Below, piece by piece: positions 1,306 to 3,934 of a DNA stretch of 32,000 nucleotides. The stretch spans positions 3,600,001-3,632,000 of the forward strand of contig NC_003272.1 of the NCBI RefSeq assembly GCF_000009705.1, given 5' to 3'. The notes beneath the pieces were generated by a model. It was not told where the DNA came from, ran no database searches, and saw only the letters and a program-made list of their open reading frames with translations. The DNA comes from Nostoc sp. PCC 7120 = FACHB-418 (GTDB taxonomy: Bacteria > Cyanobacteriota > Cyanobacteriia > Cyanobacteriales > Nostocaceae). Every line of letters starts with the position of its first letter. Within the stretch, counting starts at the first letter, position 1. A program made the position numbers and the translations under genes.

Positions 1306-2052
1306 TTATGATGCTTTCAAAGTTTTTATCGCACTAGCCTGAGATACTCTCTCAAGCCATATTTCCTTGTACAGGTTCATCTCTTGTGGAGTTATAATGA
1401 ATTCATTATAAGAACCATCGTTAATCAAATAAATTAACGCTGCTTGTTCAACAGGATATAGAGTTTCAATTGGGATATAGTAAGCTGCTAATTGAATAAT
1501 CTTATCCTGAATCCAATTTATGGAAACTTTGGGCTTTATAGAAGTTTTGAAGTCACTAAGGGTTAAAGTTTTTCTATAAAAACCTAAGTGGTCAATTTTA
1601 CCAAAATACCGATATTTGAAGCTTACAACAAATTGTTCTGATAGTATAGTTTCTCCAAAATTGGGCAACAATGTATTAAGAGATTGAAGATAATTTTGAT
1701 AAAGTTTGTCAACAGGTTTAGCTTTTTTTCCCATTAAGTGAGAATGAAGATAAGCATGAATAGCATTTCCTGCTTTAACTGCTTCATTTCTAATACGGTT
1801 AGCTTCTTGTTGCCCTACTCTAAGCATCCACTCACGAAGAGCTTCTTTAGAGCTTTCTTCTTGTGTTAGTTTCAGAATATTGCTGACGCTGCGAAGAGGA
1901 TTCTGTTTATTTGATTGTATACCTTGGGCTATATAGCAAGACTCGCCATTTAAAATTACTCTAGATAAAATAGGTAAATTAGATTCTTTATGGGTTAGGG
2001 GATAAAGTGTTCCATCAAAATGACGATGGTAGAGTGCTGCTTCTTTCAACAT
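1306..2052 (-). CDS. RecB/Cas4-like PD-(D/E)xK nuclease, candidate effector of the RT cassette
   Basis: 248 aa. The ordered motifs are GNAIHAYLH (aa 95-103), GKID (D154, nt 1591-1593), SDFKT (D167-x-K169, nt 1546-1554) and QLAAY (Q187-x3-Y191). There is no C-terminal Cys cluster. The start lies 36 nt downstream of the RT stop on the same strand. Confidence 0.6.
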   Translation of the reverse strand: MLKEAALYHRHFDGTLYPLTHKESNLPILSRVILNGESCYIAQGIQSNKQNPLRSVSNILKLTQEESSKEALREWMLRVGQQEANRIRNEAVKAGNAIHAYLHSHLMGKKAKPVDKLYQNYLQSLNTLLPNFGETILSEQFVVSFKYRYFGKIDHLGFYRKTLTLSDFKTSIKPKVSINWIQDKIIQLAAYYIPIETLYPVEQAALIYLINDGSYNEFIITPQEMNLYKEIWLERVSQASAIKTLKAS

Positions 2053-2088: not shown

Positions 2089-3009
2089 TCAATTTTCATT
2101 TGTTTGAGTATTGTTAGCTTTATGAATCTGCTGTACCTGTGATTTTAAACCTTTCAACTTACTCATTAGATGAGCATAGGTGTCAGGATGGGTTTCTTTA
2201 GAGATTTGCTTGCGGATACTGTACATTTTTTTGTGCTGTCGATTAGGAATTTTTAAAACCCCTTTTTCAAAATCAAGGATCACGCCAGTTATTTTTCGCG
2301 AGTTTTTTCCAATATAATATTTTTCTTTCTTTGTATTACTACTTAATCCGTACCGATGAAATTTCTTTTTAATCTGCCAAATCAAATTACGGCTTACATA
2401 GTCTCCCGATATTGTTACATCGTCCATATAGACGGTAAGAATACAACCTGCATCCTCAACAATATTATTAATTTCCTCCCACATATCTATATGAGCAAAG
2501 TATGACAAAATTGGACTCAAGGGGCTTCCAGTTGGAAGATGTTCTTTATAGGTAGATAGTTTTGTTAAAATTGCCGCTACATCTGGAGAGCATTTCATCC
2601 GTGTGTGGAAAAACCAATAAACACGTTTTGATTTTGTGGATGGAAAGTATTTCACAATATCTAGACTGCTTATCACATAACTATTTAGATGAGCTTTTGC
2701 ATTACTAACATAAGAGCGTCCCTTTGTTGGTGCATGAATATATTTAGGTATTTCAATTCGCTTGAGAAGCCCTTCAATTCGCTTTTGAATAAGCTTTAAT
2801 TCATATTTTGGTTTTTCCACAAGACGAGATTTTTTTCGCCTTGGATGAATAATTTCTTTTTCTATATATAAACTTTCCGAGCGAGCCAATTGTATGAGCC
2901 TACTGCGGCTTACGCCTAATAAAGTTGCAAGTTTTGCTTTAGATTGCAAACAATAGAAAGGTGATTGGTCTAGTTTATAACCTATTTTTTTAATCCTCAG
3001 CACAGGCAT
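2089..3009 (-). CDS. Retron-type reverse transcriptase
   Basis: The layout is colinear with retron RTs as I remember them (for example Ec86): KPKYELKLIQKRI, SNAKAHLNSYVISSLDIVKYFPS (NAxxH...D..FFPS), LPTGSPLSPILS, the catalytic YMDD (nt 2419-2430) and RKITGVIL (VTG-like). I prefer the ATG at 3009 (MPVLRIKK) over the TTG at 3063. It overlaps the upstream HTH gene by 20 nt. Confidence 0.85.
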   Translation of the reverse strand: MPVLRIKKIGYKLDQSPFYCLQSKAKLATLLGVSRSRLIQLARSESLYIEKEIIHPRRKKSRLVEKPKYELKLIQKRIEGLLKRIEIPKYIHAPTKGRSYVSNAKAHLNSYVISSLDIVKYFPSTKSKRVYWFFHTRMKCSPDVAAILTKLSTYKEHLPTGSPLSPILSYFAHIDMWEEINNIVEDAGCILTVYMDDVTISGDYVSRNLIWQIKKKFHRYGLSSNTKKEKYYIGKNSRKITGVILDFEKGVLKIPNRQHKKMYSIRKQISKETHPDTYAHLMSKLKGLKSQVQQIHKANNTQTNEN

Positions 3010-3298
3010 TACCAGACCTTTCAGCAATAAAGTTGAGGATTGCAATAATCTTAGAAGATACAAAATTCCTCAATTTTTCCGTTTTTACATCCTTGTCTAA
3101 GTTTTCCGAAAAGAACATAATTGAGGATACGGGTATATCAAATAAACCAGAATAACGATTAAGTAAATCAAGGGTGGGAATTTTTTTACCTGATTCAATT
3201 TCCGAAAGATACGACTTGGATATTCCTAGTCTCTCTGCCATCTCCTTTTGAGATAAATCATGGAATACCCTCATCAACCTTAGAGCCTCATTCAACAT
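2990..3298 (-). CDS. XRE-family helix-turn-helix DNA-binding protein
   Basis: 102 aa. LSQKEMAERLGISKSYLSEIESGKKIPTLDLL is a classic Cro/C1 HTH. It is on the same strand as the RT and overlaps its start. Confidence 0.85.
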   Translation of the reverse strand: MLNEALRLMRVFHDLSQKEMAERLGISKSYLSEIESGKKIPTLDLLNRYSGLFDIPVSSIMFFSENLDKDVKTEKLRNFVSSKIIAILNFIAERSGNACAED

Positions 3299-3355
3299 AT
3301 TTAGTCTTCTTTGGCTAGAGGGTCTGTAATAGAGTTATATAAAAGAGTTAACAGT

Positions 3356-3517
3356 CTAGTCTTGCCACAAATCGATCAACCACTTCAAAATTTTGAAAAT
3401 GACTGGGCCAATTTGAAACAATAGACGAAGCGTTTGAGGTTTGCGGAGCCATTTTAGAAACCGCTCATAACGCTTTTTCGACTGTTCCTGCCGTTTGTCA
3501 GATTCTGAATAATTCAT
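3356..3517 (-). CDS. Possible 53-aa small protein with a basic N-terminus and a hydrophobic/amphipathic C-terminus (below the ORF-track cutoff)
   Basis: Hand translation gives MNYSESDKRQEQSKKRYERFLKWLRKPQTLRLLFQIGPVIFKILKWLIDLWQD. The ATG at 3517 is preceded by GGGAGAG about 7 nt upstream. It ends 57 nt upstream of the HTH gene on the same strand. Confidence 0.3.
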   Translation of the reverse strand: MNYSESDKRQEQSKKRYERFLKWLRKPQTLRLLFQIGPVIFKILKWLIDLWQD

Positions 3518-3530
3518 CAGAGACTCTCCC

Positions 3531-3848
3531 TATAAAGGTGTTTGCACTCACTTACAGGAAAGTAAATGAGTGTTGCCTCAAACAAACCCGGAGAACGGCA
3601 GTTTTAACCCTCTTTATACCGGCGCAGCCCTTTGCCAAGGCTGCGTTTGTATTGTGCTTTTTCAGTACCTTAATTCGTTAAAGATTTCAGTAGCATTAAT
3701 TACACTACAGATTTCTTTAAGTTCAGTACACAATAGATTACTACTGAGTAGCTAACGAAATTTGTTTACTGAGCAAAATACGGTAGAAGATGAAACATCT
3801 TCCTCAGATCGTAATGACGATCCAGTGAGTGGCAAATGTCTCCTTTAA
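3531..3848 (-). ncRNA. Candidate retron msr-msd-like structured RNA (leader of the RT cassette)
   Basis: A long-range imperfect inverted repeat pairs 3533-3538 with 3842-3847, 3541-3545 with 3832-3836, and 3546-3552 with 3824-3830, about 18 bp in total. On the minus strand GG follows the 5' arm directly. Local hairpins then follow at 3807-3822 (6 bp), 3786-3802 (7 bp), 3678-3720 (13 of 16 bp), 3622-3646 (8 bp, GC-rich) and 3545-3572 (10 of 11 bp). Confidence 0.3.
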
Positions 3849-3934
3849 CCTGACTGAACATAGTCTAACAGATATTTGTGAATTTTGTTCGCTACTAGCG
3901 AATATTTTTTAGAATCACTTTCACTCTTTGATCA

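Follow-up and report, generated by a model that had tools for sequence, protein, structure and literature searches.

Upstream of a retron reverse transcriptase gene in the cyanobacterium Nostoc sp. PCC 7120 lies a stretch of DNA whose transcript would be highly structured, and the question that it raises is which RNA this is, how far it extends and how it is closed. We analysed positions 3,600,001 to 3,632,000 of contig NC_003272.1 (32,000 nucleotides, referred to as the window and numbered from its first letter), in which the original prediction had placed, at 3531-3848 on the minus strand, a candidate msr-msd RNA bracketed by an a1/a2-like long-range inverted repeat. Comparison with related loci led us to a different reading, to which we give a probability of about 0.85: the flagged stretch would be the non-coding, msr-msd-like half of a hybrid RNA (hyRNA) of a type VI retron, with an architecture drawn from covariation and a mechanism drawn from the published Retron-Vpa2 and Retron-Sen3. 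The conserved unit is probably an RNA of ~520 nt that runs from 3855 to ~3338, through the gene of a small protein (SP). The genes and spacer of the locus are the following.

4816-3935, minus strand: SDR gene, upstream of the spacer
417 nt, minus strand: spacer between the SDR gene and the 53-aa open reading frame, containing the candidate RNA region
3356-3517, minus strand: SP, conserved open reading frame of 53 aa, found in the equivalent place in 38 loci
2990-3298, minus strand: Cro/C1-type helix-turn-helix (HTH) protein of 102 aa (PADLOC HTH_VI, 5.5e-38; Pfam HTH_3, 1.6e-13)
2089-3012, minus strand: retron reverse transcriptase (RT) of 307 aa from the ATG at 3012 (PADLOC RT_VI, 6e-100; Pfam RVT_1)
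1306-2052, minus strand: ORF248, a PD-(D/E)XK nuclease of 248 aa related to MGME1 by profile match and invariant motifs

The RT_VI and HTH_VI matches (6e-100 and 5.5e-38) place the locus among the type VI retrons as classified by Mestre et al. 2020 (PMC7736814); it is organised as an operon of non-coding RNA (ncRNA), SP, HTH and RT with an optional nuclease gene. The RT_VI match covers the full length of the model, with RT_III-A as runner-up at 1e-43, and the YMDD motif of the RT is intact, Y195, D197 and D198 being invariant among homologues. A Cro/C1-type HTH protein of 91-110 aa upstream of or overlapping the RT gene characterises type VI, as does a small protein with a hydrophobic C-terminal helix upstream of the HTH gene; here the HTH protein has 102 aa, its gene overlaps that of the RT by 23 nt, and the SP has a basic N-terminus and a hydrophobic C-terminal helix, ending in LRLLFQIGPVIFKILKWLIDLWQD. 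Family searches with the SP gave no match, and we regard it as a predicted toxin by analogy with the SP of Vpa2 and Sen3. The order SP-HTH-RT is kept in 38 related loci. That the RNA sits upstream of two small genes had already been remarked; these genes are SP and HTH, and the position is normal because type VI retrons are laid out as SP-HTH-RT (10.64898/2026.04.27.721009).

The RT has 864 database relatives. A genome scan with one genome per species gave 80 loci, of which 28 were cyanobacterial with SP, HTH and an alignable upstream region, and ten were proteobacterial with a recognisable SP. The alignments of 29 sequences comprise the window and the 28 cyanobacterial loci, and cover either the upstream regions (A2) or the full RNA from its predicted start to the HTH start codon (A3). 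Comparison of the spacer across loci by blastn showed both ends to be conserved and the middle to be variable. Rfam returned nothing at gathering score, and up to an E value of 10 only implausible eukaryotic families. The features of the RNA, from its 5' end, are given below (loci are denoted by L numbers where they need to be told apart).

3849-3854, minus strand: GUCAGG, 5' strand of helix P0, pairing with SP codons 5-7 at 3502-3497
3831-3835, minus strand: UUGCC, an a1-like pentamer with a complement in each of the two GGCAA direct repeats
3824-3830, minus strand: ACUCACU, inner 7-bp arm of the bracket first proposed, near-invariant from cyanobacteria to proteobacteria
3805-3824, minus strand: hairpin 1, msr-like, with GG 3823-3822 as stem pairs; 95-96% of alignment cells paired, 4 pairs compensated
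3786-3802, minus strand: hairpin 2, msr-like, GAAGAUG-UUU-CAUCUUC; 90-92% of cells paired, 3 pairs compensated
3649-3781, minus strand: long, branched, variable msd-like stem, a candidate template, closed by a conserved base
3623-3645, minus strand: GC hairpin of 23 nt with the first GGCAA in its loop (3636-3632), conserved, with compensated pairs
3605-3618, minus strand: inverted repeat IR1, 5' strand of junction helix X, pairing with IR2 at 3350-3338 after the SP stop codon
3594-3601, minus strand: CUGCCGUU, 5' strand of helix H2, pairing with AACGGCAG at 3495-3488 in SP codons 8-10
3573-3577, minus strand: second GGCAA direct repeat, in the arm bearing the SP ribosome-binding site (RBS)
3545-3572, minus strand: local hairpin CACUCAUUUAC-UUUCCU-GUAAGUGAGUG, covarying, which uses the 3' arm of the bracket first proposed
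3485-3481 with 3355-3351, minus strand: helix H3, ACAGU with ACUGU, the latter directly after the SP stop; 98.6% of cells paired, 3 pairs compensated
3338-3355, minus strand: tail after the SP stop, formed by the 3' strand of H3 and IR2 (3350-3338), a motif in all SP-HTH spacers

Across the 29 sequences the RNA model holds 93% of cells paired and 32 of its 70 pairs compensated (14.9 expected), values that none of 500 shuffles reached, while slid controls were 37-48% paired. RNAalifold on A3 and an unbiased helix scan over all column pairs gave the same helices. Three of them, X (90% of cells paired, 5 of 13 pairs compensated; GUAUAAAGAG/CUCUUUUAUA in the window and GUAUAGGGAG/CUUCUAUAC in the consensus), H2 (99.6% paired, 3 pairs compensated, CG:21/UA:7 and others) and H3, hold 11 compensated pairs in total at 90-99.6% pairing and form a nested three-way junction that is already present in the unconstrained minimum free energy (MFE) structure of the window RNA. 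Its arms are formed by the msr-msd-like part, by the region of the SP start and by what remains of the SP's coding sequence; the junction uses SP codons 8-12 and the tail beyond the SP stop. The functional unit is ~190 nt longer than the 3' limit first drawn for it, continuing through the SP gene. Helix P0, which joins the 5' end to SP codons 5-7, is paired in 99.4% of cells with 3 of 6 pairs compensated (CG:26/UA:3; GC:19/AU:8; GC:15/GU:10/AU:3), and reaches up to 9 bp in gamma-proteobacterial loci. The junction helices recur in the ten proteobacterial loci, where their distances to the SP start and stop are unchanged and their sequences unrelated, and a 5' block of AGUC...GGAGAUA-a1-ACUCACUG-hairpin-GAGGAAGG can be made out all the way from cyanobacteria to gamma-proteobacteria.

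The identification of the region as the structured RNA of the retron was upheld. The region folds far better than its shuffles do (z = -6.1). The two compact hairpins noticed at the outset (GATCGT-CATT-ACGATC at 3822-3807 and GAAGATG-TTT-CATCTTC at 3802-3786) both covary, the larger ones beyond them are present, with the GC-rich one at 3645-3623, and the classical retron order of msr hairpins followed by a long msd stem is kept: in 28 of the 29 loci a variable insert of 73-272 nt is closed by a basal stem GUGUU.../...GCACAC. This stem in the window has a register (GUAUU/AAUAC) 3 nt off the consensus (GUGUU/AGCAC), so that it was kept outside the formal pair count and judged by single-sequence folds. 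Analogy with Retron-Vpa2 (10.1101/2025.10.22.683967) suggests that the variable stem would serve as the template that is reverse transcribed, and the 23-nt GC hairpin would fit, in size and position, the 23-nt 5' stem-loop described there for the multicopy single-stranded DNA (msDNA) of Vpa2.

Hairpin 2 and the ACCGUAUUUU that follows it (3785-3803, minus strand) score as an intrinsic-terminator-like site within the retron RNA; the consensus of the cyanobacterial loci carries ACCGUGUUU at this site, and the gamma-proteobacterial loci are without the U-run. In a Coleofasciculus locus (L019, 3097-3200) three extra tandem copies of the ~11-nt CUUCUGCCGUG, duplicating conserved junction sequence, stand between hairpin 2 and the msd stem.

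The SP gene lies within this fold: its coding sequence supplies P0 with a 3' strand (3502-3497), H2 likewise (3495-3488), and H3 with a 5' strand (3485-3481). As SP codons 5-12, including the conserved D-K-R-Q, are strands of three covarying RNA helices, part of the N-terminal conservation of the SP is a constraint on the RNA; an Asp-to-Asn change of the SP in L003, L024 and L027 is paired with a compensating change at the RNA 5' end. The SP RBS, GGGAGAG, lies at 3530-3524. For the poorly aligned stretch that surrounds the SP RBS and AUG, RNAalifold gave no consensus structure, and locus-specific hairpins of Shine-Dalgarno and anti-Shine-Dalgarno sequences were seen by eye only.

A further long-range pairing joins the 5' pentamer UUGCC to both direct repeats, with the GGCAA at 3577-3573 in 96.5% of cells and with the copy at 3636-3632, which lies in the hairpin loop as AGGCAAC/GGCAA, in 93%. 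All three elements change together, to UCGCC, GGCGA and GGCGA in L017 and L019 and to GUGCC, GGCAC and GGCAC in L021 and L022. Proteobacterial counterparts are UCGCC with GGGCGA (gamma) and GCCAUC with GAUGGC (alpha), and the loop of the equivalent hairpin there bears a group-specific repeat, to which a 5' complement corresponds. Because the 5' pentamer complements the repeats, the RNA itself would carry an RNA version of an msDNA segment; for Vpa2 it has been proposed that the msDNA copy of the first repeat hybridises with the second (10.1101/2025.10.22.683967). An extension of UUGCC/GGCAA by CUCA/UGAG over a 2-nt bulge was rejected, the opposite position being A, U, C or G without compensation.

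How, then, does the bracket fare that was first proposed to close the RNA? All three of its helices are present in the window, TAAAGG/CCTTTA (3847-3842 with 3538-3533, 6 bp), TTTGC/GCAAA (3836-3832 with 3545-3541, 5 bp) and ACTCACT/AGTGAGT (3830-3824 with 3552-3546, 7 bp), as is the GG directly after the 5' arm (3823-3822). A canonical msr-msd RNA closed by this a1/a2 duplex (3847-3824 with 3552-3533), branching at G3823 or G3822 and reverse transcribed from just upstream of the 3' arm, has in its favour the energy of the duplex: -19.4 kcal/mol by RNAduplex against -7.1 +/- 2.6 for 1000 shuffles, none of them as good, with the 3' arm as the best partner site of the 5' arm along a 560-nt RNA. 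Forcing the bracket costs only 4 kcal/mol over the MFE of the non-coding part (-106.4 against -110.4 kcal/mol), one pair of the 7-bp helix is compensated from C-G to U-A in L008, L010, L023 and L025, and the GG stands immediately 5' of the first msr-like hairpin, which is its place in classical retrons.

Against this, the bracket is not conserved as a pairing. On A3 it is paired in 62% of cells, a value that 478 of 500 column shuffles equalled or exceeded, and its covariation score of 0.103 lies below the shuffled mean of 0.115. By helix the paired cells on A3 amount to 25% (outer 6 bp), 78% (5 bp) and 82% (7 bp), and on A2 to 27% for the outer helix and 79% for the inner 12 bp; the outer helix is missing even in L001, the nearest locus in the genome collection. 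The UCGCC/GGCGA and GUGCC/GGCAC variants break or weaken the TTTGC/GCAAA helix and yet still pair with the GGCAA repeats. The 5' arm does hold a genuine pairing element, UUGCC, which covaries with GGCAA motifs outside the 3' arm assigned to it. That 3' arm is engaged in the local hairpin at 3572-3545, an alternative pairing that the original prediction had itself noted, and which is paired in 95% of cells with 7 of 11 pairs compensated, the top match of the unbiased all-against-all helix scan. Nor does either G behave, as judged from the alignment, as the unpaired, invariant branching guanosine that the GG had been taken to hold: G3823 is G in 22 and A in 7 of 29 sequences and pairs with U or C (GU:16, AU:7, GC:6), and G3822, though invariant, forms a G-C pair of hairpin 1 in 29 of 29. 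The only covarying pairings of terminal type are those of the 5' end with SP codons and of IR1 with IR2, and inspection of proteobacterial relatives revealed no bracket of this kind. We therefore consider closure by this duplex very improbable.

A narrower form of the same idea fares somewhat better, namely that the inner part (UUGC-C-ACUCACU with AGUGAGU-GCAA) does form, as an alternative conformer, in the window and some relatives, where it opens the local hairpin and is one state of a multi-state switch and not a priming duplex. Both the window and L001 have its 12 bp in perfect form, and CACUCAUU, which is the local hairpin's 5' strand, resembles the a1 extension, CACUCACU, as a near-identical direct repeat, which is expected of competing strands. 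The window, L001, L008 and L010 have the 7-bp helix ACUCACU/AGUGAGU (3552-3546) without a fault, one pair being compensated in the last two, but it is broken in L003, L015, L016, L020 and L024. Since ACUCACU is conserved across phyla without a conserved complement in proteobacteria, its conservation suggests recognition by a protein instead of pairing. Such a conformer is conceivable, and we lean against it.

The preferred reading, that of a hybrid RNA with the SP gene inside, can be set beside four kinds of known system. Retron-Vpa2 of Vibrio parahaemolyticus (Zhang et al., bioRxiv 10.1101/2025.10.22.683967) has a ~470-nt hybrid RNA composed of msr-msd and the coding sequence of a toxic SP. 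The window shares with it the gene order ncRNA-SP-HTH-RT, a single RNA (here predicted from covariation, and ~520 nt long) with an msr-msd-like part and the SP coding sequence, and three arms that leave a central node, joined by inverted repeats, with a 3' tail that anneals to the first arm. It also shares short direct repeats, one copy in an msd-arm loop and the other in the SP RBS arm (here GGCAA at 3636-3632 and 3577-3573), and a long template stem followed by a hairpin of ~23 nt. The ten proteobacterial loci, with the same plan in different sequences, likewise fit the hyRNA as published for Vpa2. Unlike Vpa2, the host is a cyanobacterium, some of the clade, including this locus, add an MGME1-like nuclease gene, and the Vpa2 text, in the sections consulted, is silent on any pairing between the 5' end and SP codons and on a 5' complement to the direct repeats; the Vpa2 RT is not among the 120 homologues listed.

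For Retron-Sen3 and its relatives of cl2075 (Garcia-Rodriguez et al., bioRxiv 10.64898/2026.04.27.721009) the genes have been described in the order SP-HTH-RT, together with a conserved ncRNA upstream of SP and with repeats IR1 and IR2 that flank SP and pair with each other. The likeness extends to a structured ncRNA within ~300 nt upstream of the SP start with a long variable internal stem, to RNA structure under selection inside the SP coding sequence, to the proposal of two alternative conformations, and to a 5-bp palindrome upstream. The SP has 53 aa here, in contrast to 75-79 aa in the cl2075 cluster, the 5' end pairs here with SP codons 5-7 and forms no basal stem that includes the SP RBS, and in Sen3 the single-stranded DNA (ssDNA) is constitutive and regulation post-translational. 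With classical retrons such as Ec86 and Mx162 the locus has in common the short 5' msr-like hairpins, the long variable msd-like stem, a retron-clade RT and the logic of an anti-phage toxin and antitoxin. It differs from them in that no a1/a2 duplex is conserved at the ends of the RNA and no G can be identified as an unpaired, invariant branching nucleotide, in that the RNA is not adjacent to the RT gene and encloses the toxin gene, and, going by Vpa2, in that msDNA would activate the toxin and not neutralise it. Toxin mRNAs of the hok/sok type resemble the RNA in being kept untranslatable by long-range 5' pairing until they are remodelled; the systems are unrelated and the analogy is one of mechanism only, the proposed trigger being reverse-transcribed DNA here, and 3' processing with antisense RNA there.

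On the model of Vpa2 and Sen3, RT and HTH would bind the hybrid RNA and form a complex with it. The fold would keep the SP untranslated, because the clamps P0 and H2, covering coding positions +13 to +30, are located inside the ribosome footprint or immediately past it. Upon phage infection, ssDNA made by the RT, starting next to IR1 and copied from the variable stem and the 23-nt hairpin, would accumulate, and its TTGCC could hybridise to the second GGCAA and remodel that arm. Translation of the SP would thereby be released, and the toxic SP would arrest growth of the infected cell. The HTH protein may in addition act as antitoxin or repressor.

Could the conserved RNA instead be no more than a translational leader (riboregulator) of the SP toxin, with the RT acting on another template or non-catalytically? 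Most of the covarying long-range helices do clamp the SP initiation region, and six type VI retrons were without detectable ssDNA in heterologous tests (cited in 10.64898/2026.04.27.721009). However, the YMDD motif of the RT is invariant, retron templates show this pattern of a long variable stem on a conserved base and, next to it, a conserved hairpin, and RT-dependent ssDNA maps or is attributed to the equivalent region in Vpa2 and Sen3, with catalysis needed for defence by Vpa2. This explanation we hold to be the least probable of those considered.

Several points weigh against our own reading of the locus. P0 and UUGCC/GGCAA cross the three-way junction, and therefore would belong either to a pseudoknot or to an alternative state; in nested folding, forcing both costs ~12 kcal/mol relative to the MFE. 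UUGCC is only 5 nt long and covaries equally with two partners, and the likeness to Vpa2 was drawn from its published description. As Sen3 is regulated post-translationally with constitutive ssDNA, a translational switch of the Vpa2 type may not apply here.

A more elaborate scheme would make a competition of the two pairings, with the UUGCC of the RNA and the TTGCC of the msDNA contending for the GGCAA in the SP-start arm, so that msDNA, as a DNA mimic of a1, unlocks translation of the toxin. ORF248 would then set the msDNA threshold, doing in cyanobacteria what turnover by RecBCD is proposed to do for Vpa2 in E. coli (10.1101/2025.10.22.683967), and the upstream stem-loop of Sen3 would be an HTH operator. 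We offer this scheme as speculation, and doubt that it holds in full.

The predicted start of the RNA comes from the sequences upstream of it, which are given here together with the leader.

3887-3901, minus strand: palindrome TTCGCTAgTAGCGAA, ~30 nt upstream of the predicted start
3862-3870, minus strand: extended -10 box TGtTAGACT, with the predicted start at A3855
3836-3848, minus strand: leader UUAAAGGAGACAU, Shine-Dalgarno-like and conserved in sequence, containing the TAAAGG of the bracket first proposed

A motif TGnTAnAnT, present in the window as TGTTAGACT at 3870-3862, is conserved in all loci 6-7 nt upstream of AGUC, and the first covarying helix starts at nucleotide 2 of the predicted RNA. 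In gamma-proteobacterial loci a canonical TTGACC-17-TATACT promoter ends 7 nt before AGUC, a spacing which supports A3855 as the start in the window. The palindrome at 3901-3887 is conserved in nearly all cyanobacterial loci covered, with changes that are single-sided and uncompensated, and the gamma-proteobacterial loci have GCGAAC palindromes overlapping their promoter (in the -35/-10 spacer). Judged by this pattern it is probably an operator of the Cro/C1-type HTH protein and lies outside the RNA, and the HTH protein would probably autoregulate through it. Its candidacy as an RNA stem-loop or terminator was dismissed on three counts: the changes lack compensation, the site precedes the -10 box, and the T-run is on the wrong strand. 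In form, the palindrome (5-bp stem) resembles the conserved upstream stem-loop of Sen3, which is reported to be essential for defence; as it looks here like a DNA operator upstream of the predicted start, unlike an RNA stem-loop, the Sen3 element might also be a DNA site.

For the leader UUAAAGGAGA the helix scan of the alignment found no conserved partner, and its bracket partner CCTTTA (3538-3533) pairs in 25-27% of cells. The leader is also one of four Shine-Dalgarno-like purine tracts (AAAGGAGA at 3836-3848, IR1 at 3605-3618 with the consensus GGGAGGG, the SP RBS at 3524-3530 and the HTH RBS at ~3305-3312), and many pairing combinations are possible between these and several CUCC/CUUCU tracts (UUCUCC at 3594-3589, those of IR2 and those of the spacer that precedes the SP AUG).

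Downstream of the RT, ORF248, a fourth gene that is optional in this cyanobacterial retron clade, begins 36 nt past the RT stop codon, and a gene of this type follows the RT in 10 of the 28 cyanobacterial loci. The family holds 26 clusters in the database, all of cyanobacterial hypothetical proteins, and its profile matches structures of MGME1, a PD-(D/E)XK ssDNA exonuclease, with an E value of 3.4e-13; E139, D154, D167-x-K169 and Q187xxxY191 are invariant. A structure predicted for ORF248 by AlphaFold (predicted local distance difference test score, pLDDT, of 57) was too poor and was not used for a fold search. ORF248 may be an msDNA nuclease encoded by the retron; our literature search found no paper linking retrons with MGME1.

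Beside the retron and convergent with it, on the plus strand at 666-1225, a DUF433 gene (5.4e-27) overlaps a DUF5615/PIN-like gene (6.2e-37), and the two are probably a toxin-antitoxin pair. The retron and DUF433/DUF5615 modules are flanked by housekeeping genes for an NAD(P)HX dehydratase, an SDR and NDH-2.

Until 2025 type VI retrons, which are anti-phage systems built on a reverse transcriptase, were believed to lack both ncRNA and msDNA. Two preprints of 2025-26 now place a toxin gene inside the retron RNA, and this locus is one more case of that recently described kind, the window, its 28 cyanobacterial relatives and the ten proteobacterial loci giving independent comparative support for the toxin-in-RNA architecture. 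The comparison supplies hypotheses at the level of base pairs, for the 5' end with toxin codons 5-7, for the pentamer with both repeats and for the junction with toxin codons 8-12. It shows as well that RNA pairing constrains some of the D-K-R-Q conserved at the toxin's N-terminus. It also brings forward ORF248 as a candidate for a previously unlinked ssDNA-nuclease partner gene of these retrons.

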